This document shows positions 2,498 through 37,360 of a DNA stretch of 41,161 nucleotides, one piece after another. Below the pieces are notes generated by a model. That model had not been told where the DNA came from. It saw only the letters and a list, made by a program, of their open reading frames with translations, and made no database searches. The translations under genes and the position numbers were made by a program. Source of the stretch: a virus. Every line of letters starts with the position of its first letter. The first letter of the stretch is position 1. The stretch lies in the UHGV virus genome UHGV-0045963; one strand, written 5' to 3'.

Positions 2498-3123
2498 ACA
2501 GCCAGCACCTTACTGGCAATGATGTATCGGGCGCGGCGGTCATCAATGCCGTTCCGGCCACCATTGATAATCAGAGTTACACGTGCAATATCGCCGGTAT
2601 ACTTCATGCAGCCTTTGCTGGAGAAGAACCAGGCCGCGCTACGGGCCGCGTATTCGTCCTGTGCCAGCAGTTCAGGATTCTCCAGCAGGTCAACTTTCAG
2701 ACCGTTTCCGCAGTCACGATAGTTATTCAAGCCGGTAATCTGGATAAGTCCGCGCCCACGGTAGTTCCAGCCATCACCAGGGGCATTGTTCCCCATGCGT
2801 TTGCTGTACACCAGATTGGCGATAGCGCGCTGTCGCTCAAGTGGTAATGCTGCTTCACCAGCACGGCGACCCAGTGCATTAGCCTGCCCCTGGGTGAGAC
2901 GCCCAGCCCGAACGAAGTTAGCCAGTCCGGTGACACTGTAGTTGAAATTTTCCTGCAACCGGGTGAAGCCCCCAGACTCATGCCCGACCTGAGCAATAAA
3001 CATTGCCTGATCTTCGGGTTTGCTGATTCCAAACTCTTTCATCGCAGAAGTTATATGCAAGAACCAGCGTTCGGCCAGCGCCTCGCTAATACCAGCAGCA
3101 CGCTGGAATTGTTTAATCTCCAT
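2494..3123 (-). CDS. endolysin, glycoside hydrolase family 19 (chitinase-like lysozyme)
   Basis: GH19-type motifs ([10 protein letters not shown]; [16 protein letters not shown]; AAWFFSS); RBS GAGG; sits between holin and Rz. Confidence 0.85.
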
Positions 3124-3421
3124 GTTTAGACCTCGTTATTTTGAAAATTTGAACGACGTTACCGCGAGTTTTAAGAACCGCAGCAAGCATGACAGCGTTA
3201 ATAATGACCTCAGATAAATCCACAGCCATTGGCGTACGTAACCAGATTGCATAGGCGACTCGAACAGGAATACTGGCCGCAGCAACAATCAGGAAATAAG
3301 CAAGCCATCCTCCCCACCTTCGGTGTTGAGAGCCGTTACGCCGGAATGTGACAACGCGAATTGCTATGCCAGTGCAAATAACTGCATTGGTGATAAGCAA
3401 AAAAAACTCATGCGTTACCAT
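3113..3421 (-). CDS. holin or antiholin-like small membrane protein
   Basis: 102 aa with 2-3 predicted TM segments; RBS GGGGAG; overlaps both neighbours. Confidence 0.5.
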
Positions 3422-3812
3422 CGTCTTTTCTCCCCGGAATTAACTCGCGTGGATTATCGGAAAGGTGATAGAGCCATATACCAATACGCACAGCGACAAT
3501 TGCTGACACGAATGCGCCTGCAGAGAAAACAATCCCTTTTTCAAAAGAGTCCTGCGTGATGGTAGGGATCAGGCTAGCTATGCCGATAAGAATTGATGCT
3601 GCTGGTTTGTAAAAGAGAAGGCCGCAAAGAAAGCTGAGCATCGACATGAGCACCCGGCGACGGATGGGGTACTCTACTGCAGAGGTAACAAAAATTACCG
3701 CCCCAGCCAAAGCCCCTAAAGCAACCTCCGGAGGGACACCTGCAATAACCGCAGCAAGAGAACCAAAACTAAGCAACTGATTTAATTGCTCACTTGTTAC
3801 TTGAGCAGACAT
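3408..3812 (-). CDS. holin-like membrane protein
   Basis: 134 aa with about four hydrophobic segments and a charged C-terminus; RBS AGGAGAAAGT; first gene of the lysis cassette. Confidence 0.6.
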   Translation of the reverse strand: MSAQVTSEQLNQLLSFGSLAAVIAGVPPEVALGALAGAVIFVTSAVEYPIRRRVLMSMLSFLCGLLFYKPAASILIGIASLIPTITQDSFEKGIVFSAGAFVSAIVAVRIGIWLYHLSDNPRELIPGRKDDGNA

Positions 3813-4118
3813 ACTTTCTCCTGTTTACTATCTATAAGCCAGTCAATTATTGATGACTAAACCCGCATAGTAAACCATATATGAATCATTATTGTTCCAT
3901 ATCATATATCTCAATAAAAGTACTAATTATTTTACAGAACGAGCCAGCAGAGTGGGGGCAGTTGTACAGGAACCATAGACTTAATTTTGTATTTAATAAT
4001 GCTATGGTGTAATAAACCTGAACATGTATTTAAAATACGTACTGATTCATGATAGAATTCAAAGATAACTTTTCACCAACTCCGTTTTTGATACCCGCAA
4101 AATATTGCGGGCTTTTTT

Positions 4119-7100
4119 TTAACGTTCTTCCAGAGACTGAATCCGCTCTTTTATCTTATCCATTTCTCTGCGCTGCCATGCTGCCTCGATATAGAATAAG
4201 AGATCAGGTCTGACCCCCCATCTAGATCCTGCTGGCGTTATTTCAACGCGCTCAATGATGTCTTCCATTACCATCACTGGATTATCATCCTCATCAACAA
4301 TGATGCTCCCGTCATTATCAGTCAGCTGTATTTCCCTTTGGCCAGTAATGACGTCATCATATACTGCGGGATAATCGTCATAGCAAAGAAAGGCATAGCG
4401 GCATGTTGTGCTTTCTTCTTCCATGAGTCCGTGAGAAATAAGAACATCACGAAGTTGCTGCGCGATTACACCATGATGTATCCTCGCCCCTTCTTCTCCC
4501 TTTATAGCGACAGCGTTCAGCCATTTATAAGCGATATACCTGACGTCACCCCAGGCATCCAGCAATGCTTCGTCAGGAGAGACCGGCTCTGTCTTTAATG
4601 TTCCGTCACTGGTAACCACAGGATTGGAGCCAAGATAAACTGTCGAGAACCTGTTTCCCGGACCACCAAGAGCATTTACATTATCAAGATAAGGTTTAAC
4701 ATCTCCGTTCTCAAAAAGATGTTCGAGTGCGTTATATACCGCGCGACGTGGAGTACTGCTTCCGGAACCATGCAACGTTATCATTGCACCATCTGCTGAA
4801 GACGTTGTTTCACCGCCGCTAACGATTAATCTCTGAGCGGTAACATCATCAGACGGTACTTTCTTCGCAATAATGGCGTAATTGCCCTCCAGTTTGACTT
4901 CCGCGCGAACTTGTCCTGATGTACCTGCATGGACAGTCAGTGACTGGACGGCAACATCATCTGTGAAATCAACGGGTACAGGAACCGTCCTCACGCCGGA
5001 CGTCGACATAAAAGTAGGAAGCGTTCTGTTAGGAGTGGCTCCGTAGACAAAATCCCTTGAAACAAATTCTTCCTGTTTAATTTTCACCCTGAAACAATAC
5101 AAATCAGCCGGGTGACCATCGTGAACATAAGGATATTTTCTGTTGTTATCCCCTATGCTCCATGGGTTTAGAAAGTCTTCCCCACCGAAAATGTAGTACA
5201 GCCAGTTGTCTTTGATACAAACTGAACCAACACCAACCGCAGAGTTAACTATTCCGCCCTGATAAATCTGATCAGTAACATTAACCCACTCTACATTATC
5301 CAGACTCCACTCATTGACGTTAACTCTGGTCATAAATGTTCTTGGATAATTTCCTGCATAACGGTTATCAGGTTCTCCTCCTTCCCACTCACCAAATGCG
5401 CGCTCACTGCCAAAAATAATCAGCTCATCGCCAACTTTGGCAAAAGGAAGGTTTGAGTGATGAACATTATTTGGGAAGCGAAGAGAATTCCATGATGCAC
5501 CTAAATCAGAGCTTCTGTGCAATGAACTACCGGGTTGAGTACTTAATGTCCCCCTGGTCGTCAGATACAGAATGCCATCATAATATTTTACACATGGCTC
5601 AGATGCATTCGCCTCATATTCTGCAGGTATGCGTCTGCGAACAAAGCTACCAGGAGAACCGAAAGCATCAGAGAAATAGAGTATCCCAAGCTCGCGTGGA
5701 CCAATATCACCATTATGGTAGCCAACAGCAAAACTGTTATCGCTAATCGTCGCAAAACTGTGAATCTCAGTAACAGGAGTGCTTCCGTCAACAAAAGAAG
5801 AAATAGTTCCAAGACTGGTTTTTCTCCATGGTGACGAGTGAAATGATGTACCAAAACTCCAGTATCTACCCTCGTTATTCTGATCCACATCCTGAGTATT
5901 TTGCGTCGTAACTGTAAAAGTATTTTTATCAATAACAGTAGTCACCGTCATATTCCCGGTAACACCTGTAACACCAGAGTTTGAGAAGTTGACAAAATCA
6001 CCAGCAAATAATCCGTGATCAGTAATGCGAATATAAGCGACTTGCTGATTTGCTGCTTTCGTTATACCACCATAAACGCGAAGGCTGCGACTCATTGGAC
6101 GATCCCACAACTCTGCAACCTGCAGTTTATTTCCGCGCACGGTCCGCGTCTCAATTACAGCAAAAAGGCGATTTCTGACAACCCCCATACTCATGCAGTG
6201 ATAGTTAACTGTGGGATAGTTTTCATGTAAATCTGTAAGCCATTCCGGCGTTGTCCAGGTCTTCCCGTCATCTCCTGAGCGAACCCATGCAACATGGAGG
6301 TTATTTACACCATGGCGGTCTCCAGCCATAAAAGGCGCATAGATGACATTGTCATATACAAACGTTTTATCCTGCGTCCAGGCGTTGTACCACGGTGTAT
6401 CTGTAATTTTAAATAACTCTCCCTGGATAAAATCTTCAGAAGCATAAAAAAGAGGCTGACCCGGTATTCTCTCAAATAAAAAACGAGCATTTTTAAATCG
6501 GCTGACATCCGGAAGAGTTGATACTTTAAAAGTAAGCCCTAATCCGTCAATTTTATAACCTGGAGATGAGGCTTCAAGGCACGCGCTTATTGCAGTGGAA
6601 TCGTCATTTATACCATCACCAACAGCTCCAAAATCTTTGGGGCTAATAGCATCACGCATTTTATCCTGGAACGTTCGGTATACTGCCCCAGAACCATACT
6701 GAATAAACCAACCAAAACCACCAACAACCCCGGCGATTGCAGCATCGACATAATTACGCATTGAGCGATTATTTACAGCGTCCTGTTCAAGTGATGGATC
6801 TGCAAGGTTAGAAATTCTGTTTTGCTTTGCATCGTAATATTTTGCAAGCAAAGATGGTTTCATCAATGCACGTCTGAACCATCCAAAACATTGCTGGATC
6901 AGCATCGTCAGGTAGTCAAAGGCATCTTCATGCACTTCGGGGAAAAACTTTCCCTGATTGCGAAGGTCTGTCTCCTGCACTACATCAAGCACACGATCTA
7001 TCGTAATTCTCCATCCAGTAGCAAGCGGCGACGGAAGAACCACAGAACCGCCACTATAAGTGCCCGCCCCAGTTACCGTATAACCGGTATCCAGAACCAA

Positions 7101-7238
7101 TTCTGTTACGTTCCCGTTCAGGTCAGACACCTGAACAACCAGGTCGGATTTTCTGAAAATTCGAAAAGTATACGGAAACGATGTCGTAACGCCGTTACCG
7201 GTGTATTCGTTGTGGTCAACTTCGGTTGAGACCGTCAT
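4119..7238 (-). CDS. tailspike with sialidase-like (endo-N-acetylneuraminidase-like) central domain and C-terminal intramolecular chaperone (peptidase S74-like) domain
   Basis: 1039 aa; two Asp-box motifs (SGDDGKTW, SSDLGASW); C-terminal TSDGTLK ... GVIAQQL pattern of self-cleaving chaperone domains; phage fibre-type N-terminus (TGNGVTTSFPYTF). Confidence 0.85.
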   Translation of the reverse strand: MTVSTEVDHNEYTGNGVTTSFPYTFRIFRKSDLVVQVSDLNGNVTELVLDTGYTVTGAGTYSGGSVVLPSPLATGWRITIDRVLDVVQETDLRNQGKFFPEVHEDAFDYLTMLIQQCFGWFRRALMKPSLLAKYYDAKQNRISNLADPSLEQDAVNNRSMRNYVDAAIAGVVGGFGWFIQYGSGAVYRTFQDKMRDAISPKDFGAVGDGINDDSTAISACLEASSPGYKIDGLGLTFKVSTLPDVSRFKNARFLFERIPGQPLFYASEDFIQGELFKITDTPWYNAWTQDKTFVYDNVIYAPFMAGDRHGVNNLHVAWVRSGDDGKTWTTPEWLTDLHENYPTVNYHCMSMGVVRNRLFAVIETRTVRGNKLQVAELWDRPMSRSLRVYGGITKAANQQVAYIRITDHGLFAGDFVNFSNSGVTGVTGNMTVTTVIDKNTFTVTTQNTQDVDQNNEGRYWSFGTSFHSSPWRKTSLGTISSFVDGSTPVTEIHSFATISDNSFAVGYHNGDIGPRELGILYFSDAFGSPGSFVRRRIPAEYEANASEPCVKYYDGILYLTTRGTLSTQPGSSLHRSSDLGASWNSLRFPNNVHHSNLPFAKVGDELIIFGSERAFGEWEGGEPDNRYAGNYPRTFMTRVNVNEWSLDNVEWVNVTDQIYQGGIVNSAVGVGSVCIKDNWLYYIFGGEDFLNPWSIGDNNRKYPYVHDGHPADLYCFRVKIKQEEFVSRDFVYGATPNRTLPTFMSTSGVRTVPVPVDFTDDVAVQSLTVHAGTSGQVRAEVKLEGNYAIIAKKVPSDDVTAQRLIVSGGETTSSADGAMITLHGSGSSTPRRAVYNALEHLFENGDVKPYLDNVNALGGPGNRFSTVYLGSNPVVTSDGTLKTEPVSPDEALLDAWGDVRYIAYKWLNAVAIKGEEGARIHHGVIAQQLRDVLISHGLMEEESTTCRYAFLCYDDYPAVYDDVITGQREIQLTDNDGSIIVDEDDNPVMVMEDIIERVEITPAGSRWGVRPDLLFYIEAAWQRREMDKIKERIQSLEER

Positions 7239-7341: not shown

Positions 7342-7358
7342 ATTACCTTTCGGGTAAT
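7342..7358. promoter_or_regulatory. 17-bp palindromic operator-like site ATTACCTTTCGGGTAAT
   Basis: Perfect inverted repeat of the ATTACC-N5-GGTAAT family; lies in the divergent region between tailspike and the LexA-box gene. Confidence 0.6.
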
Positions 7359-7394: not shown

Positions 7395-7414
7395 TACTGT
7401 ATAAATATACAGTT
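7395..7414 (+). promoter_or_regulatory. LexA (SOS) box TACTGTATAAATATACAGTT
   Basis: CTGT-N8-ACAG with AT-rich centre, 18 of 20 matches to the consensus TACTGTATATATATACAGTA; ends 6 nt before the ATG at 7420. Confidence 0.7.
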
Positions 7415-7419
7415 ATTGC

Positions 7420-7692
7420 ATGGAGAATATTAAGATGCAGCAGTATCACTATCCACTGGAAGACGGATTTACCGAAAGGATTCACACGCCGGGAGGCGTC
7501 AGGTCACTGGTGGAGGGATCGCACTTGATGAAATTACTCCGGGATCTCGATAAGGATGGATTTAATGTCGATGGCCCACTTGCCGAACTGACTGCACTGA
7601 TTAACTACGTCACCAGCTCACAGATGTCTATGCAGGATCTGCAAACACATCTCGACTATTGTGCCGAACAATTACGAAAACAAACCCGGTAA
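7420..7692 (+). CDS. small antirepressor-like protein (standalone homologue of the Ant C-terminal domain); an alternative start is ATG 7435
   Basis: Residues RIHTPGGVRSLVEGSHLMKLLRDL...ELTALINYV...DLQTHLDYC align with the C-terminus of the 8843..9529 protein (LIHSPSGVLGLTENSLLMNLLNQL...ELTTMFCYI...DIQTHAEYI). Confidence 0.6.
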   Translation: MENIKMQQYHYPLEDGFTERIHTPGGVRSLVEGSHLMKLLRDLDKDGFNVDGPLAELTALINYVTSSQMSMQDLQTHLDYCAEQLRKQTR

Positions 7693-7698
7693 ATTTAA

Positions 7699-7716
7699 AG
7701 GCCGCAAGAGCGGCCT
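7699..7716. terminator. hairpin shared by the convergent genes 7420..7692 and 7715..8443
   Basis: AGGCCGC AAGA GCGGCCT stem-loop; overlaps the stop codon of the minus-strand gene. Confidence 0.45.
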
Positions 7717-8443
7717 ATCGTTTCGCTTTGTGCTCATCCCAGCACGTTTTGCACCATGCCATTAAGCCGTCCGCATTTTGATTATTAGGGTAAAAGCTGG
7801 TTCGTTTTCTGCGGACATTACAAATTGGGCACCACTTCATATGGCGTGTATTCTTTGGGCCATCGAGACACCTTGCACACCACTTAGTCAATCCATCTGG
7901 ATTTTTTGACGATTTCCTGAATTTTTCATATGGAAGGTTTATTCTGCATCGCAAGCACTGCTTGCTACCACTTGAAACTCTGTTAGCTGATTCTTCTTTT
8001 GGCGGCGATACAGAAGGTATTCTTGCTGGCTCTGATACTGCCTGAGGTGCTTTTTTAGATGACTGAGACGATATGTCATCACCAGGGAATCTTCCATGAT
8101 ATGCCGGACGCGTTGACACTCCAGGTGGAAGCTCAGCTGTAAACGGCTTTGGCTGAATCAGTTGCCTCTCTTTTGCTAACTCCTGCTGTTTATAATATGT
8201 CTGGATTACCGCACTATCATAAGCAGGAGGTGCGGAAATATTAGGCGCATTACCTCCAGTTTTTTGAAACTGAGTAGAGGTGTGTTCTATCACCTGTGTA
8301 CGATTAATCGTTATCTCCCCATCTTCGGTCTTTATCGTTTTGTTATGATTAACGACCGTACGATCAGAGATCTTAGTCTTGTTCTGGTTGATAACGTAAA
8401 TAATCACCGCAACCACACCAACAACTATCCAGAAAACTTCCAT
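7715..8443 (-). CDS. membrane-anchored protein with C-terminal tandem Cys4 zinc-ribbon-like repeats, unknown function
   Basis: N-terminal TM (VFWIVVGVVAVIIYVI), Ser/Pro/Gln-rich linker, two repeats C-x2-C ... WC-x-x-C (CLRCR...WCARC; CPICN...WCKTC); RBS GAGGAAAAGCA. Confidence 0.6.
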   Translation of the reverse strand: MEVFWIVVGVVAVIIYVINQNKTKISDRTVVNHNKTIKTEDGEITINRTQVIEHTSTQFQKTGGNAPNISAPPAYDSAVIQTYYKQQELAKERQLIQPKPFTAELPPGVSTRPAYHGRFPGDDISSQSSKKAPQAVSEPARIPSVSPPKEESANRVSSGSKQCLRCRINLPYEKFRKSSKNPDGLTKWCARCLDGPKNTRHMKWCPICNVRRKRTSFYPNNQNADGLMAWCKTCWDEHKAKR

Positions 8444-8462
8444 TGCTTTTCCTCACAATAAC

Positions 8463-8479
8463 ATTACCTTAAAGGTAAT
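8463..8479. promoter_or_regulatory. operator-like palindrome ATTACCTTAAAGGTAAT
   Basis: Perfect 17-bp inverted repeat between divergent genes 7715..8443 and ant. Confidence 0.6.
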
Positions 8480-8555
8480 ATCTTGCTTTCAGGTGATCAA
8501 GCGTTAAACGCAATCAACCAAATACGGTTGATTTTTATATTTATCAGCGTTTATC

Positions 8556-8572
8556 ATTACCTTTGCGGTAAA
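8556..8572. promoter_or_regulatory. operator-like palindrome ATTACCTTTGCGGTAAA
   Basis: Second copy 93 bp from the first, upstream of the ant leader. Confidence 0.55.
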
Positions 8573-8662
8573 TTTACATCGCACTCCTCTTGTGCCATAG
8601 TAATCGAGCACTGGCAAAATCCAGTGCCGGGATTTGCACCCCGGATTACTAAAAGGCGCATA

Positions 8663-8684
8663 CCACGCCAGACGTGGTTTTTTT
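8663..8684 (+). terminator. intrinsic terminator inside the ant leader
   Basis: Stem CCACG / CGTGG with loop CCAGA followed by T7; about 160 nt upstream of the ant ATG. Confidence 0.55.
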
Positions 8685-8842
8685 ATGCGTATAGCACAGT
8701 CATGCCAGAATTATGGTGGGACGTGCAGGGGCACCGAAAGGTGCGCCGGGTCCTTTTAGCCGGTAGTGCAAACCCTGTACGTCTCACCACCAACGAGATT
8801 TGCACCTCAGGTGGTGATTAACCATACTAAAAGGTGATTGCC

Positions 8843-9529
8843 ATGACTGCTAACGTAACCCCATCTGTTTTTCATTTTGAATCAGAAGCAACCATTCGAG
8901 CCATTGTTATTGATGGAAATCCTTGGTTTGTTGCCAAAGACGTTATTAAAGCTCTTCAACTGACAAACCCCACCATGTCAATCAAATCTCTTGATGATGA
9001 TGAAAGGGCTAAATTTAACTTAGGTCGTCAAGGCGAAACCAATATTATCAGCGAGTCAGGCCTCTACACACTGATCCTCCGCTGCCGCGATGCGGTGACA
9101 CCAGGCACTATCCCCTACCGCTTTCGTAAATGGGTTACAGGTGAGGTTCTTCCTCAGATCCGCCGCACCGGAAGTTACATTAAAAACTCGCTCCCGCAGG
9201 AAGAACGCATAAAGATGGTTGCCGACCAGGTAGCCAACGCCACAGCATCAGCAGTGATGCAGGCGATGAAGATAGAGAACAAAACCTACAGTGCCCCACT
9301 GAAGCCCGGCTACCGCAGCCTGATTCACTCGCCGTCTGGTGTTCTCGGCCTGACGGAGAACTCACTGCTGATGAATCTGTTGAACCAGTTACAGGAAGAC
9401 GGGCACGACGTATCGGGCGCGGCGGCGGAGCTGACCACCATGTTCTGCTACATCGTCGGTGTGAGCAAATGCCTGCGTGATATCCAGACTCACGCGGAGT
9501 ACATCAACGACAAAGCAGGATTCTTCTGA
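8843..9529 (+). CDS. antirepressor (Bro-N/Ant-type N-terminal domain plus C-terminal domain shared with 7420..7692)
   Basis: N-terminal Bro-N-like sequence (FHFESEATIRAIVIDGNPWFVAKDV...); RBS AAGGTG 6 nt before ATG 8843; the track start at 8834 is GTG. Confidence 0.75.
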   Translation: MTANVTPSVFHFESEATIRAIVIDGNPWFVAKDVIKALQLTNPTMSIKSLDDDERAKFNLGRQGETNIISESGLYTLILRCRDAVTPGTIPYRFRKWVTGEVLPQIRRTGSYIKNSLPQEERIKMVADQVANATASAVMQAMKIENKTYSAPLKPGYRSLIHSPSGVLGLTENSLLMNLLNQLQEDGHDVSGAAAELTTMFCYIVGVSKCLRDIQTHAEYINDKAGFF

Positions 9530-9600: not shown

Positions 9601-9617
9601 ATTACCCCAAAGGTAAA
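9601..9617. promoter_or_regulatory. operator-like palindrome ATTACCCCAAAGGTAAA
   Basis: Same family; 25 nt upstream of the 9643 ATG, near a candidate TTGCAG -35 element. Confidence 0.5.
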
Positions 9618-9642: not shown

Positions 9643-9831
9643 ATGGAAATCAACATCATTACATTGCTGAAGGCCATTATTGGCGGAGCGGGCTTAGGCT
9701 TTGCCCTACCAGGCGGATTATCTTTCCTGCTTCCTGCTTTTACTGTTACAGCTGGGATAGCCTATGCATTTGCTGTGGCTGGTGCTGTTGCACTCCCTGC
9801 TATCTATGCCGCAAAGAAGTTAGCCAACTAA
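9643..9831 (+). CDS. small hydrophobic Gly/Ala-rich peptide with double-glycine-leader-like N-terminus
   Basis: 62 aa; MEINIITLLKAIIGG followed by a 47-aa Gly/Ala/Leu-rich hydrophobic region ending KKLAN; RBS GAGGGGG. Confidence 0.5.
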   Translation: MEINIITLLKAIIGGAGLGFALPGGLSFLLPAFTVTAGIAYAFAVAGAVALPAIYAAKKLAN

Positions 9832-9832
9832 A

Positions 9833-10165
9833 ATGCCTGATTTATCTTGGCTTGCGCCCAGAGATGCACAGCAATTGACAAGGTTTTATTTCATACTGTG
9901 CATTGCTTATCTTGCTGTTCATCTGATATGGGATGCCGTTTGCAAAGATACGCCTCCTTTTTCTTTGGATAAGTTGCAATACAAGATGAATGAGGTTTAT
10001 TCATCATCTACTTTTGCAACCAGCGCATTCTTCATTGTTATTCTGTTCGATATGAAGAATCCACTGAGAACTTCAGATGCTTTCATATTCCCATTAATTA
10101 TTGCTGCTCTAACTGGCTTTATGATCTCATTATCAGCAATAGTGCCAAAGAAAGTAAATAACTGA
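9833..10165 (+). CDS. polytopic small membrane protein (candidate immunity or partner protein of 9643..9831)
   Basis: 110 aa, three hydrophobic segments; start 1 nt after the preceding stop; followed by a terminator. Confidence 0.5.
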   Translation: MPDLSWLAPRDAQQLTRFYFILCIAYLAVHLIWDAVCKDTPPFSLDKLQYKMNEVYSSSTFATSAFFIVILFDMKNPLRTSDAFIFPLIIAALTGFMISLSAIVPKKVNN

Positions 10166-10168
10166 ATA

Positions 10169-10190
10169 AGCCCGCGTTGCGGGCTTTTTT
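10169..10190 (+). terminator. intrinsic terminator
   Basis: Stem AGCCCGC / GCGGGCT with loop GTT followed by T6. Confidence 0.7.
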
Positions 10191-10262
10191 ATGGACGAAA
10201 CAAAAGTCAGTGCTACACTCATTGACGCCACATCGAGGTGGCTTATAGATGGAAATGTCACA

Positions 10263-10424
10263 ATGAAAAAAGCATTTGCTGCACTGTTCGTTTTGTTGTC
10301 TCTGGTAGCTTCAACTCAGGCCTTTGCCGGTCGTTGTCAGCACGACAGCGACACTGCTGCTGACGGCTCCCGCTGCGGTGGGCGTTCTGCGGATTCCCGC
10401 CCGGGTGGCGGTGGCATTCGTTAA
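10263..10424 (+). CDS. small secreted Cys-containing peptide (about 53 aa)
   Basis: Signal peptide MKKAFAALFVLLSLVASTQAFA then a Gly/Ser/Asp-rich tail with two Cys; weak RBS; the track start at 10191 directly follows a terminator. Confidence 0.35.
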   Translation: MKKAFAALFVLLSLVASTQAFAGRCQHDSDTAADGSRCGGRSADSRPGGGGIR

Positions 10425-10455
10425 AAACAAGGCCGCGAAAGCGGCCTGTGACATG

Positions 10456-10836
10456 TCACGCAACGCAATTATTACCGCGCCATGTAACATTTTTAATAAT
10501 CTTATCAGCACCAAACTCAACGTAAACAGAGCAACTGAAATGGAGTGTATAACCGCCATCAGTTGTTGCGTATGTGTTTGAATATATAGTATTACCAATT
10601 AGATTAGACGTAGTATTATACGTTGTGGTTTGTGGTACGTTATAACTACCAGAGCTTGAGTAAACATACACTCTGTTTCCATCTGGAGATGTAAGCTCTC
10701 CCTGAGGATACCCCCACTGCTGAACCATTGCGTCTATACTCTGCCCGCGCCACGTAAGCATATTTCTTTCAAACTGTGCAGCTGACTGGCATCCAACGAG
10801 AAGCATAAATCCAAAAATCAAAAATACTTTTCTCAT
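10456..10836 (-). CDS. lipoprotein, candidate superinfection-exclusion or surface moron
   Basis: MRKVFLIFGFMLLVGC lipobox; Thr/Ser/Asn/Tyr-rich mature part; AT-rich context between virion genes and ant. Start could be 10851 or 10872. Confidence 0.6.
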   Translation of the reverse strand: MRKVFLIFGFMLLVGCQSAAQFERNMLTWRGQSIDAMVQQWGYPQGELTSPDGNRVYVYSSSGSYNVPQTTTYNTTSNLIGNTIYSNTYATTDGGYTLHFSCSVYVEFGADKIIKNVTWRGNNCVA

Positions 10837-10921
10837 AATTACCCCTATCATGGAAAAACAGCACCAATCCACAAATTAACTAGTTATTTTATTATTCTTC
10901 CGAACAATACAATTCCGAATA

Positions 10922-11047
10922 CTACAAAGCCGAACCATGCCGCTGCACGCAACAGAGATTCCAATTGAAACCCATTTTTATCAAAATGTATGAATAGCAT
11001 AAAAACGCTGCACATATTAGTACAATAAAAGTTATTTGAACCATCAT
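10922..11047 (-). CDS. very small hydrophobic ORF (41 aa), frame uncertain
   Basis: Strong RBS AAAGGAG 5 nt before ATGATG; hydrophobic product MMVQITFIVLICAAFL...; the ORF-track alternative is 10884..11072 in another frame with no RBS. Confidence 0.25.
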   Translation of the reverse strand: MMVQITFIVLICAAFLCYSYILIKMGFNWNLCCVQRHGSAL

Positions 11048-11055
11048 ATCTCCTT

Positions 11056-13530
11056 TTATTGCGGAGTGACATCCTGTGGTCGCCACCAGTATGTCTGGTT
11101 AAACTCTTTCTTCGAACGTTGCTCCATTTTACGCAAATAGCCTGGTGAAAAATACTCCTGCATCTGGTTAAAGATCATGTGATCGAGAGCCGCCTTCAAG
11201 TACCAGAGATTCGCACCAGGCATCAAACCTTTCCCCAGCTTCACCAGATCACCACCAGTCTGCTCACTCTTCCCTTCCACAGCATTTAACGGTATGCCCT
11301 GAGCAATCTTCACTACGTCATCAACCAGACCAGCTACCGGGCCAAGCATCGACGCCAGCGCGCCGCTTCCGTACCTAGTGTGATCTGACAATAAAAAGTC
11401 ACCGTAAAGGCCAAGACCACCACCTTTCAGTAGAGCACCAAGCCAGAATTTTGCGGCATCTTCTCCTGTCATCTCTCGAGGATTACGACCAGACGCAAGG
11501 TCGTTAAGTTGCTGCGACAAAGCGCCAAGAATGGTCGTACTGGCAATAAACGTCGCAATATATGCCGCACGCCCACCAGCAGACGGCATACCCATAGCGC
11601 GTGACCAGTGACGCATAACAACCGAGATAGGGAACGATTTAAACAGGAAAACACTTCTCGTTAATTCACCTTTCCATGTTCCACGCTGAATACCAGAACC
11701 GGTTATCAGTTGCTCACGTGCTCCCGGTGTAATAACAGCCATATCAACTTCTTCAGTTACGGCACCGAGCAGTTTACGCATTGCCTCAAATTTCACGCGT
11801 TCAGGCTCACCAAGATGTTTAACTGCTGAATCAGGGATACGCATAATGCTTTCCGGTGTCAGCATCGTATTATTACCGTTCCCCCAGTCCTCCTGTTTCG
11901 CCAGCTTCCATACGCTCCAGTCTGTGTCAGTAATCCCTTTGCTTTTCAGGATACGAAAATCAGAGTCATCGAGGCTACGAAGGTCTGGTGTCCGTGACAC
12001 TACTTCTCCCAGGCTTCCCATCATGGTTACGCCATAGGCGCGCTTGTGCGCATCTGACCATGCTGTAAGCCCACTGGCACGCATTACCGCCGTTGCCGCC
12101 CAACGAGACACTGACGGCCCCATATTATCCATCGCCCAGCGGTTAACGCTGCCAAGTAGAGATTCCATCGCCAGACCAGCGCGGCGCGCCCGCGCAAGTT
12201 CTGTACGGTTCGTTGGGTCCATAGCTTCAAGCTGGTTGCGGAATAACTGGTTCATTGGAAGGTTGGTAACCTTCGCAGACAGATACATGGTTCCAAGATC
12301 AGAGAACGATGACAGCAACGCGGATCCGAGTCTGCTGGCAACCAGCCAGTTGCGGATATTGTCAGACCATCGCGCGATGTGCGGATTCGCTACAGGCTGT
12401 GTCTTTCCGGAAATAAAGTTGTACAGATTCTCTGTGTTGTTCGCCAGCCGCTCGACTTTACCGGTTTTACTCGGGTTAGCTGTTGCCGTTTCTGCCTTCA
12501 CCTGATCAAGAAGAGAGCGGAAAACATGATCGGGGTTTGGGCCATATGTTTCCACCAGTGCAATATCTTTACTGATACCTTCCAGGTGACCGACCATGAT
12601 TTCCCATAGAGAGCGATCGCCATAAAGTTGCTGATATTGCAGATAGGAATCTGCATCTTTGAAATGTATCTGTCGTGATGCATTACCACGGTTAGCACGT
12701 GCGCCGGAAATTCGCATTCCGGTATCAGTAAGCTTATTCAGCCCACCAGTAGCGATCGTGTTATAAGCCTCTCCAAGAAATGAAGACAACTCGGCATCGT
12801 TCATCAGTTGTCCATCGGCTCGGATATAATATTTGCGATCCAGCCTACCTATAACATCGCTAACCCACTTATCCTTTGATACTGCCCCAACCTTTTCCAT
12901 AGAATGATGTTGAGGGATCCCCCAGTTTTCGAGATAGCCAATGTCCCCACCAGCATCATTAAACCGGCGGCGCAGCAGCTCTGTAACTTCTCTCCACGCC
13001 TTAGCACCGTTTCTTGCTTTAGCATTGCCAGTAGTTTGCCCCCGCATTTCATATACCAGGTCACGTACGCCCGCTTCATCTTCAAACAGACCAAAAAAGC
13101 GAGGATCAACTGCTTCGAATGCCTCCTGCAATTGACTCAATGCATAATCACGGGTGGCTTTTGTTCTGGATTCAACAGAGAGGAAATTAGATTTACCGTC
13201 TGCATTAAAAGCTATAGTACGGTTAAGAGCGCCAAGTTTCCCATCAGCCCCTTGATAGCTATTGATAAATTTATCCAATCTCTGACGCGCGGCTATAGTG
13301 AGAGCCACACGACGTTTCTTTAATGCCGCTTCTCGCTGTAATTCTTCAGATGCCAATTGTGCTGCTCGATATAGCCGCTCTGATTCGGAAAGTTGTCGCC
13401 ACGACATAGGGTCATCACGAGCAATGGAGCGCATATTTCGATAAATGCGGTCTTCAATGTTCTGTATTTCTCGCGCCGTTAACATGCGCTGCGCCGCCTG
13501 CTGAACCGCTTGTATACATTCCTGTCTCAT
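11056..13530 (-). CDS. large virion internal/ejection protein (podovirus core protein)
   Basis: 824 aa; last large gene of the coupled virion operon before the accessory island; RBS GAGAGG. Confidence 0.65.
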   Translation of the reverse strand: MRQECIQAVQQAAQRMLTAREIQNIEDRIYRNMRSIARDDPMSWRQLSESERLYRAAQLASEELQREAALKKRRVALTIAARQRLDKFINSYQGADGKLGALNRTIAFNADGKSNFLSVESRTKATRDYALSQLQEAFEAVDPRFFGLFEDEAGVRDLVYEMRGQTTGNAKARNGAKAWREVTELLRRRFNDAGGDIGYLENWGIPQHHSMEKVGAVSKDKWVSDVIGRLDRKYYIRADGQLMNDAELSSFLGEAYNTIATGGLNKLTDTGMRISGARANRGNASRQIHFKDADSYLQYQQLYGDRSLWEIMVGHLEGISKDIALVETYGPNPDHVFRSLLDQVKAETATANPSKTGKVERLANNTENLYNFISGKTQPVANPHIARWSDNIRNWLVASRLGSALLSSFSDLGTMYLSAKVTNLPMNQLFRNQLEAMDPTNRTELARARRAGLAMESLLGSVNRWAMDNMGPSVSRWAATAVMRASGLTAWSDAHKRAYGVTMMGSLGEVVSRTPDLRSLDDSDFRILKSKGITDTDWSVWKLAKQEDWGNGNNTMLTPESIMRIPDSAVKHLGEPERVKFEAMRKLLGAVTEEVDMAVITPGAREQLITGSGIQRGTWKGELTRSVFLFKSFPISVVMRHWSRAMGMPSAGGRAAYIATFIASTTILGALSQQLNDLASGRNPREMTGEDAAKFWLGALLKGGGLGLYGDFLLSDHTRYGSGALASMLGPVAGLVDDVVKIAQGIPLNAVEGKSEQTGGDLVKLGKGLMPGANLWYLKAALDHMIFNQMQEYFSPGYLRKMEQRSKKEFNQTYWWRPQDVTPQ

Positions 13531-27461: not shown

Positions 27462-27538
27462 GTGGCATTAGCTCAGTTGGACAGAGCAACCGCCTTCTAA
27501 GCGGTTGGTCGCAGGTTCGAATCCTGCATGCCACGCCA
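27462..27538 (+). tRNA. tRNA-Arg (anticodon UCU, decodes AGA)
   Basis: Hand-folded cloverleaf: 7-bp acceptor stem GTGGCAT/ATGCCAC, D-stem GCTC/GAGC, anticodon stem ACCGC/GCGGT with loop CTTCTAA, T-arm GCAGG-TTCGAAT-CCTGC, discriminator G and encoded CCA. Confidence 0.9.
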
Positions 27539-36124: not shown

Positions 36125-36232
<108 letters not shown>

Positions 36233-36256
36233 TCTACAGAGGGTTGTAGCTGGATA

Positions 36257-36487: not shown

Positions 36488-36570
36488 AGCTATTGCCTGA
36501 TATTTATTTCAGATAATAAATATTCACCCATAAGGTAACAAAAATCAAGGATAGTTACCTACGGGGTGCA

Positions 36571-36587
36571 TTTACCTGTTGGGTAAT
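36571..36587. promoter_or_regulatory. operator-like site TTTACCTGTTGGGTAAT in the cro/cI divergent region
   Basis: TTACC-N5-GGTAA; additional half-sites GGTAAC (36534..36539) and GTTACC (36554..36559) nearby. Confidence 0.55.
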
Positions 36588-36641: not shown

Positions 36642-37226
36642 ATGAAAAGTATCCAGGACGTCCGCAGGCAAAATCTCAACGACTTGATCGACCGTGAATT
36701 CAATGGTGTTCAGACGCGGATGGCAGAAAAACTTGGAACTCAGGCAAATCTGGTAAACCGCTGGGCTCTTGGCAAGAAGGTTATCGGCGACCAGGTTGCA
36801 CGAAAAATTGAAGCTGCCGCCAATAAACCCCGTAACTGGCTTGATATTGATCGTTCGCTTTCTCAGGAGGGTTTTCAGCCTGTCGGCCCGAGCGATATAG
36901 GTCAGCTGGCGGCTCACAACCTGGAACGCTGGATGAGCGAAAGCCGCGACCTTTCAACACAGGGAAAACTTCACCGCGCATCCGGCGTCGCCCAGGTGAC
37001 AATCAGCCGCCTGTTAAACAATGAGGTCAGCGTTTCCATTTCCACTCTGGAGAATGTTGCATCCGCATTCGGGCGTCACGGATATGAACTACTGATTCAC
37101 CCGCACGACCCTGCGACTATCAACTATGACCGCTCACGCTACGCATTGTTACCCGAAACCGAGAAAGCAAAGATCGAAAGTTACATTGAATTTGTCATCA
37201 ACCAGAACGAAAAAAGCAAACAATAA
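36642..37226 (+). CDS. CI-like repressor with two XRE-type HTH regions and no recognisable LexA-like autocleavage domain
   Basis: 194 aa; HTH-like segments near residues 25-45 and 115-135; no Ala-Gly/Cys-Gly plus Ser/Lys S24 motifs seen; no SD sequence before the ATG; followed by a terminator and OL-like operators. Confidence 0.65.
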   Translation: MKSIQDVRRQNLNDLIDREFNGVQTRMAEKLGTQANLVNRWALGKKVIGDQVARKIEAAANKPRNWLDIDRSLSQEGFQPVGPSDIGQLAAHNLERWMSESRDLSTQGKLHRASGVAQVTISRLLNNEVSVSISTLENVASAFGRHGYELLIHPHDPATINYDRSRYALLPETEKAKIESYIEFVINQNEKSKQ

Positions 37227-37282: not shown

Positions 37283-37299
37283 TTACCTTACGGGTAATT
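37283..37299. promoter_or_regulatory. operator-like palindrome ATTACCTTACGGGTAAT (OL-like)
   Basis: Perfect inverted repeat just after the repressor terminator. Confidence 0.6.
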
Positions 37300-37343
37300 T
37301 TTTTAACTCATATCTATTGACACCAAACCAAATAAGCATAATT

Positions 37344-37360
37344 ATTACCTCAACGGTAAC
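37344..37360. promoter_or_regulatory. operator-like palindrome ATTACCTCAACGGTAAC overlapping a pL-like promoter
   Basis: TTGACA at 37317..37322, a -10-like CATAATTAT about 15 nt downstream, operator overlapping and just downstream; precedes the leftward early genes. Confidence 0.6.

Follow-up and report, generated by a model that had tools for sequence, protein, structure and literature searches.

Salmonella phage SPC32H carries a repressor/antirepressor pair, Rep and Ant, whose structure is available (PDB 5D4Z, 5D50) and which was reportedly characterized by Kim and Ryu (2013) and Kim et al. (2016). In reviews and papers citing that work, SPC32H Rep is described as a repressor inactivated without cleavage, by Ant, the synthesis of which is repressed by LexA. 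In the same secondary sources, Ant is described as a tetramer that binds the C-terminal domain of Rep and frees Rep from DNA. The DNA analyzed here was the virus genome UHGV-0045963 (41,161 nt, called the window at its full length), an epsilon15/phiV10-like (genus Uetakevirus) Escherichia coli prophage of a podovirus group. It contains a small gene (7435..7692, plus strand) for a stand-alone Ant and a large gene (8843..9529, plus strand) that ends in a module of the same family. The small Ant is probably an SOS trigger and the large one an anti-immunity arm of the immI type known from phages P1 and P7, with both acting on the same Rep.

The LexA site of SPC32H is said to overlap the ant promoter (attributed to Kim and Ryu, 2013), and the Tum and Gifsy antirepressors were reportedly set apart by these authors, by description, as protein families different from SPC32H Ant. 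The same logic is followed by Tum (phage 186) and by GfoA/GfhA/GftA (Gifsy phages), in which a non-cleavable repressor is inactivated by a LexA-repressed small protein (PMC3121763). In the isrK-orf45-anrP region of Gifsy-1, the mRNA made by read-through of isrK stays untranslated, and the short IsrK RNA provided in trans activates the downstream antirepressor 139-fold (Hershko-Shalev et al. 2016, PMC4825925). The closest described counterpart of the large gene is ORF4 of E. coli Uetakevirus vB_EcoP_ZX5 (ZX5), a direct ortholog, the overexpression of which lowered the prophage titer from 1e9 to 1e6 (about 1000-fold) while free phage stayed at 1e10 (PMC9782041). ORF4 is treated in that paper as the only antirepressor, with no mention of the small Ant, LexA, the shared module, or the RNA leader. 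The small Ant of ZX5 is annotated as 'hypothetical protein'.

The other model is the immI region of P1 and P7 (c4, icd, ant1/2). Its C4 circuit is in charge of immunity to superinfection rather than of resident-prophage induction, and allele differences make P1 and P7 heteroimmune. The scheme of a1/b1, a'/b', and a2/b2 segments for the P1/P7 c4 repressor reportedly goes back to Citron and Schuster (1990). P1 Ant is under the control of C1 and the antisense RNA C4 as well as Icd (PMC8201110). The components found in the window (SPC32H Ant, ZX5 ORF4, and the C4 and isrK RNAs) are already known, and their combination is new. In the literature searched, no description was found of both genes sharing one Rep-directed module, nor of N-terminal domain swapping or an allelic C4 circuit in this phage group.

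The small antirepressor gene and the Rep repressor

The small gene encodes an 85-aa protein that is 88% identical to SPC32H Ant (record label 'ant: anti-repressor protein') and matched chain E of PDB 5D50 ('Anti-repressor protein') over the full length (residues 2-84 against 3-85, E = 4e-47). It was assigned to the family by this full-length, stand-alone homology to SPC32H Ant (about 86 aa). The protein also matched phrog_450 (E = 3e-48), labeled 'unknown function' in PHROGs, and RefSeq and most phage records carry the gene as 'hypothetical protein'; among Pfam and NCBIfam models, none was found to cover the module. The ratio of nonsynonymous to synonymous substitution rates (dN/dS) was about 0.05, indicating purifying selection. 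An earlier note, made from the sequence, had described a minimal stand-alone module in an open reading frame (ORF) at 7420..7692. The module was retained and the start was moved: the true start is almost certainly ATG 7435, with 7420 lying five codons too early, because GGAG is found 9 nt upstream of 7435 and this start agrees with the annotated orthologs and the 86-aa crystallized protein. ATG 7420 is only 7 nt past the LexA box.

The LexA box proposed in front of the small gene was found as a perfect CTGT-N8-ACAG at 7397-7412, aligned with the box of SPC32H. The LexA (SOS) box TACTGTATAAATATACAGTT (7395..7414, plus strand) overlaps what is likely the -10 region of the promoter of small ant, and it fits what is taken here to be the LexA consensus at 18 of 20 positions. 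The box is kept in phiV10, SPC32H, and another E. coli prophage, and the other CTGT-N8-ACAG matches in the window (23112, 27654) were at chance level. A Rep-type operator palindrome, TTACCTTTCGGGTAA (7343..7357), is located 40 bp upstream of the LexA box and is also conserved ahead of SPC32H ant. The small arm of the window and that of SPC32H thus have in common the gene, its size, its position between the tailspike and ejection-protein genes, the LexA box, the upstream operator, and a Rep homolog with TTACC-N5-GGTAA operators. SPC32H differs in that it has no second antirepressor and no isrK/C4 cassette, and its Rep is only 43% identical to that of the window though Ant is 88% identical.

The prophage repressor Rep (36642..37226, plus strand, 194 aa) matched chain A of PDB 5D50 (SPC32H Rep) over the full length (E = 3.5e-42) and is 99.5% identical to the Rep of phiV10/ZX5. 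It is presumed to be the common target of both antirepressors. Operator pairs flank the gene at 36524-36586 and 37283-37359. The exact palindrome TTACC-N5-GGTAA was counted 14 times in the window (0.7 expected) and borders the repressor gene in the window as well as in SPC32H; because of this position, the motif is called the putative Rep operator. Further copies were located at 9602-9616, 27125, 30270/30288, 34090/34152, 36091, 36524/36572, and 37283/37345. Such operators are spread genome-wide and often paired 48-62 bp apart, one being just upstream of small membrane-protein ORFs (9643..10165), and Rep seems to control many separate transcription units, beyond one early region. When the E. 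coli and Salmonella members are compared, Ant has diverged far less than Rep, in which the DNA-binding part is 53% and the Ant-binding part 40% identical, and the operator half-sites are the same despite the Rep divergence. Cross-reactivity of Ant between the E. coli and Salmonella phages seems possible.

The large antirepressor gene and its leader RNAs

The large protein (228 aa) consists of a Bro-N domain, a helical linker, and an Ant-like C-terminal module (AntC). The Bro-N domain reported earlier (PF02498) was recovered at aa 18-104 (nt 8894-9154, plus strand; E = 1.5e-19, 70.8 bits against a cut-off of 25.6), and AntC was delimited by similarity to SPC32H Ant at aa 147-223 (nt 9281-9511, plus strand). 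The Pfam scan of the large protein returned Bro-N only, with no ANT/KilAC or AntA domain.

The module shared by the two products, which the earlier note had recognized by a motif series, is real. BLASTP of 7420..7689 against 8843..9526 gave 32/77 identities (42%) in a gapless alignment (residues 4-80 with 144-220, E = 3e-16). With the 7435 start, the identity was ~40% over 78 residues (large-protein residues 147-224, E about 7e-15). The Smith-Waterman score of the small against the large product was 161, far above the shuffled controls that had been suggested as a check (26.6 +/- 4.4, maximum 65, 2000 shuffles, z = 30.6). The named motifs are present in both copies (IHTPGGV/IHSPSGV, LMKLL/LMNLL, AELT/AELT, and DLQTHLDY/DIQTHAEY, small and large, respectively), and 16 alignment columns are invariant across the small and large subfamilies. 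AntC residues 147-223 matched residues 3-79 of 5D50_E (E = 1e-13), so that the whole Ant fold was covered, and AntC is under purifying selection (dN/dS 0.2-0.4). The large protein is 83% identical to ZX5 ORF4 overall and identical in the last 150 aa, and the isrK/C4 leader and Rep are likewise shared with ZX5. In phiV10 (3765..4444), the 'anti-immunity protein' p23 and the 29-aa p22 together make up one large ant gene, with a frameshift inside the Ant-like module. The same two-piece match to large ant was obtained in the O157 typing phages 9 and 10.

Two phage operators and a terminator-containing leader had been placed before the large gene. Both operators were found as exact TTACC-N5-GGTAA copies (8464-8478 and 8557-8571), although operators are not particular to this copy, the small gene having one as well (7343-7357, conserved in SPC32H). 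The operator at 8464..8478 is beside the start of an inserted minus-strand gene (7715..8443) and was found only in relatives with the insertion (TL-2011b). The operator at 8557..8571 touches the -35 element of the promoter assigned to isrK; it lies 51 nt upstream of the 5' end of this RNA, a spacing that recurs unchanged in Enterobacter phage Tyrion and a Klebsiella phage (three genera). The promoter-like site (TTTACA, 17 nt, TG-CATAGT; 8573..8601, plus strand) ends 7 nt before the isrK 5' end and is positioned for transcription to begin there. The promoter scan was not above chance (4 found, 4.4 expected), and promoters were assigned by position, this one relative to the Rfam isrK match.

The terminator of the leader was confirmed by the terminator scan as an intrinsic terminator at 8662-8684 (plus strand), and the description of the leader was corrected, as it is composed of two known RNA families. 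The isrK-like RNA (8608..8684, plus strand; Rfam RF01394) was matched full-length with 67.4 bits (gathering score 50), and the terminator is its 3' part. The C4-type antisense RNA (8709..8794, plus strand; Rfam RF01695) was also matched full-length, with 77.8 bits (gathering score 45), and its minimum free energy fold is -49 kcal/mol. Both RNAs were above the gathering scores before large ant in every relative examined, and neither was found in SPC32H by the Rfam scan.

Two short C4 segments are complementary to sites on either side of the element (all on the plus strand). The hairpin loop b' (CCTTTTAG, 8752-8759) has exact 8-nt complements at b1 and b2, and the single-stranded a' (GTGCAAA, 8766-8772) has exact 7-nt complements at a1 and a2. 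The upstream sites are decoys within isrK (a1, TTTGCAC, 8633-8639; b1, CTAAAAGG, 8649-8656), and the downstream ones are the C4 targets a2 (TTTGCAC, 8799-8805) and b2 (CTAAAAGG, 8827-8834), the latter overlapping the Shine-Dalgarno sequence of the large ant ATG at 8843. In the seven loci compared, a' has three alleles (GTGCAAA, ACGCCAA, AGACCAA) and b' has four (CCTTTTAG, CCACTTAG, CTACTAG, CCTTTGTAG). The upstream and downstream targets match the C4 allele in each of the seven, with the isrK-copy b1 mismatch in Tyrion as the sole exception.

This arrangement resembles P1/P7 immI in that the leader of an antirepressor gene contains a C4-family RNA, an operator of the main repressor is at the promoter, the two short C4 segments have complements up- and downstream with the downstream site over a ribosome-binding site, and the alleles co-vary. 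It differs in the protein, which is unrelated to P1 Ant (Bro-N plus the SPC32H-Ant-like module, no KilAC/ANT), possibly in the leader, where no convincing icd-like coupled ORF was found, and in the phage, a podovirus with a separate LexA-controlled antirepressor using the same module. With Gifsy-1, the window shares the isrK RNA and terminator, the read-through leader, and the antirepressor-like gene, and the experimental behavior of Gifsy-1 fits the pairing scheme in the window leader. In the window, however, the leader ORF is truncated, and the downstream protein and the target repressor are of a different phage type.

An ATG at the 5' end of C4 (8713, TATGGTGGG) is invariant in all loci, and its position corresponds to the first AUG of Gifsy-1 orf45. 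The ORF from this ATG (8713..8766) stops after 17 codons in the window, where the a' allele GGTAGTGCAAA creates the TAG that ends it, and runs for 35 codons to the TAA before ant in TL-2011b. A 39-codon ORF in another frame (8702..8821) ends at the same TAA and had no family match. In TL-2011b, a P22-type sar antisense RNA match was observed at 7417-7484 (44.8 bits, gathering score 43), a few kb beyond the antirepressor cassette; the Rfam scan gave no sar match in the window.

Relatives, proposed mechanism, and alternatives

The module family was delimited by an exhaustive profile search over 1.84 billion representatives (50% clustering). It is small, with 63 representatives that are either stand-alone (about 85-95 aa) or C-terminal in longer proteins, the N-terminal domain of which is Bro-N, AntA, ORF6N, or Rha. 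Word-indexed protein searches gave close relatives only (136 proteins for small Ant and 25 for AntC). In the E. coli prophages of the group, the AntC of the second gene is 91-100% identical, and the N-terminus is Bro-N (two variants, 70% identical), AntA, or ORF6N. Because the C-terminus is constant while the N-terminus is exchanged, the C-terminal module appears to be the part tied to the repressor of the group. A distant relative, the small Ant of which is only 43% identical, has the order tail fiber gene, LexA-like box, small Ant, isrK, C4, and Rha::AntC. Among 50,697 phage records, the module was present in 35, all 35 of which also have a Rep homolog; 19 records have the large type, and each of them also has the small one.

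The comparison with related prophages that had been proposed earlier showed both copies in most E. coli carriers. The small gene was detected in 529 and the large module in 470 of 5426 complete E. coli genomes, at up to three places per genome, and the two-gene layout is on these counts the norm in E. coli. The Salmonella relatives SPC32H and epsilon15 have the small copy only, without the isrK/C4 cassette.

Some relatives needed separate inspection. An independent stand-alone subfamily of the large type was considered and rejected: P0130 (95 aa) and similar proteins are at the edges of degraded prophages, with ~1 kb of uncalled DNA upstream. The prophage of E. coli MLI109 has three module copies including the small Ant, namely an ORF6N::AntC gene (2767..3486) and an opposite-strand AntA::AntC gene (4756..5076, WP_001555611) in addition to it, and a YafO-type toxin gene is located between both large-type genes. 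In a distant prophage, a called 319-aa 'Rha' protein (10001..10960) has swallowed isrK/C4 (10003-10189) as a false N-terminal extension, with Rha beginning at residue 100. The 279-aa versions of the large protein look like the same gene-calling artifact.

The small and large copies are about 37-42% identical in amino acids, and no DNA similarity between them was detectable. They group in two distinct clades that branch in parallel, each with members from Escherichia, Enterobacter, and Klebsiella phages; between the window and a Klebsiella phage, the identities were 62% (small), 52% (large), and 45% (Rep). Judged by these sequence comparisons, the copies are old paralogs, and no in-place duplication took place. 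The large gene is a separately inherited, recombining cassette, because DNA similarity is lacking, the clades are separate, the cassette is absent from Salmonella, and the N-termini are swapped.

For the small arm, the parts were identified by sequence, and the mechanism was transferred from SPC32H. LexA would sit on the small ant promoter, and its removal upon DNA damage would allow Ant to be made and Rep to be stripped from its operators. For the RNA arm, the parts and the pairing were taken from sequence and covariation, and the on/off behavior from P1 and Gifsy-1. The promoter beside the Rep operator would drive the isrK-like RNA up to its terminator, and read-through would enter the C4 element. 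The exposed C4 segments may then pair either with the isrK decoys or with the sites covering the ribosome-binding site of the large gene. By default the large gene would not be translated; translation would start once C4 is outcompeted, or if the C4 allele of the incoming genome does not match. An incoming relative with such an allele could make antirepressor in a lysogen and so inactivate the shared Rep. In both proteins, the C-terminal module would supply Rep specificity, and the N-terminal domain of the large one would be an interchangeable accessory. By analogy with P1/P7, the large Ant is most likely an anti-immunity/heteroimmunity device acting on superinfection, not a second trigger of the resident prophage, because E. 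coli relatives with near-identical Rep carry different, internally matched C4 alleles.

Several points weigh against this assignment of roles. The structure prediction that had been proposed as a check was informative for one half of the large protein: in the AlphaFold2 model (25-sequence alignment), the predicted local distance difference test score (pLDDT) was 70-82 for Bro-N and 32-67 for the linker and AntC (45-67 in the C-terminal part), which is too poor to show a shared fold. Because of this poor model, the argument for the shared fold is confined to the sequence matches to 5D50. Binding of Rep by AntC is predicted from homology at ~40% identity, and the heteroimmunity role is drawn wholly from the P1/P7 analogy. 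In the ZX5 assay, full-length GST-tagged ORF4 was used, and the domains were not separated (PMC9782041). The large gene of phiV10 is frameshifted, and therefore the gene would be dispensable for a viable phage. Finally, upstream translation of orf45 is needed in Gifsy-1, and with the short ORF present here the coupling step may differ.

The earlier note had read the pair as a domain duplication in this phage that splits induction inputs. The resident prophage would then have two inducers, one responding to SOS through LexA and the other to another physiological cue through the leader RNA. The modules are homologous and differently controlled, as this account supposes, and a host signal acting through an Hfq-binding small RNA is conceivable because raised IsrK in Gifsy-1 turns on the antirepressor downstream of it together with lytic-type genes of the resident prophage (PMC4825925). 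A local duplication is contradicted, however, by the lack of DNA similarity, the separate and old clades, the absence of the large cassette from the Salmonella members, and the recombining N-terminus. Allelic, co-varying C4 specificities under the same Rep are predicted for immunity specificity, whereas a host-signal sensor is not expected to vary in this way. The different control of the two copies therefore stands, a split of induction inputs is doubtful given the P1 immI-type circuit before the large copy, and the account as a whole is unlikely.

More doubtful still is that the shared module serves tetramerization only and that the large protein acts via Bro-N on DNA or another target, with no contact to Rep. 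SPC32H Ant is tetrameric according to the secondary sources mentioned above, so some of the conserved residues must serve oligomerization. Counted on the same side, Bro-N, AntA, ORF6N, and Rha were reportedly described as putative DNA-binding domains by Iyer, Koonin, and Aravind (2002). The module is nevertheless confined to genomes with a Rep homolog, its constancy beside an exchanged N-terminus is the opposite of what an N-terminal effector predicts, and the ZX5 ortholog opposes lysogeny (PMC9782041). That the large gene is a decaying remnant without present function, as the frameshifts in phiV10 and the O157 typing phages and the stand-alone large-type fragments in degraded prophages (P0130) might suggest, is very improbable in view of its intactness in most of the 470 complete E. 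coli genomes carrying it, the dN/dS of 0.2-0.4, the RNA pairing sites maintained via compensatory changes, and the active ZX5 ortholog.

The reading of an SOS-triggered small Ant and an immI-type large Ant, both directed at Rep, can be extended to the whole family on a more tentative footing. The SPC32H-Ant fold could be a portable Rep-specific warhead that is deployed bare under LexA and also behind an exchangeable Bro-N/AntA/ORF6N/Rha domain under an allelic C4/IsrK lock, in epsilon15-like phages of Escherichia, Enterobacter, Klebsiella, and beyond.

Genomic setting and implications

The region lies between two minus-strand genes, one for the tailspike (4119..7238) and one for the large ejection protein (11056..13530). 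Its nucleotide identity is 92-95% to E. coli phages of the epsilon15/phiV10 group (TL-2011b, ZX5, phiV10) and 100% to the E. coli FDAARGOS_1303 chromosome. The tailspike has the End_N_terminal, beta-propeller, beta-barrel, tail-spike, and S74 chaperone domains of a complete endosialidase, and because of this the prophage is expected to target K1-capsulated E. coli.

Between both antirepressor cassettes lies a gene for a 242-aa protein (7715..8443, minus strand; phrog_6762) with an N-terminal membrane helix, two C-terminal CxxC zinc-ribbon-like repeats, and weak Stc1 and endonuclease VII-like matches. The gene has its own Rep-type operator (8464) and is an insertion absent from phiV10, ZX5, and most relatives; its counterpart in TL-2011b is a pseudogene-like 'misc_feature'. 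A terminator-like GC-rich hairpin (7699..7716), likely a bidirectional terminator, is located between this gene and the convergent small ant. Elsewhere in the window, the phage carries a tRNA-Arg gene (anticodon UCT, 27462-27538, plus strand). Long homopolymers of G, A, and C border a run of N (36125-36235) that separates the cro-like gene from the following ORF; this run has the look of an artifact of assembly or masking, with the ORF calls broken there.

Prophages of this type are present in roughly a tenth of the complete E. coli genomes, and some of them alter the O-antigen or are directed at the K1 capsule. Should the two antirepressors share Rep as their target, induction would hinge on the SOS response and also on the identity of the related superinfecting phage. 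This is relevant to cross-induction of prophages and to employing these temperate phages as tools. The match to PDB 5D50 would give a structure-backed function to the uncharacterized C-terminal part of common Bro-N, AntA, ORF6N, and Rha proteins, and P1-type antisense control of immunity is extended to a podovirus group. If the fold is indeed a portable warhead, Rep-identical phages would form RNA-defined heteroimmunity groups that induce one another on superinfection. The family would then also be a natural dissection of multi-domain 'Ant/Bro' proteins, in which the variable C-terminal domain sets repressor specificity.

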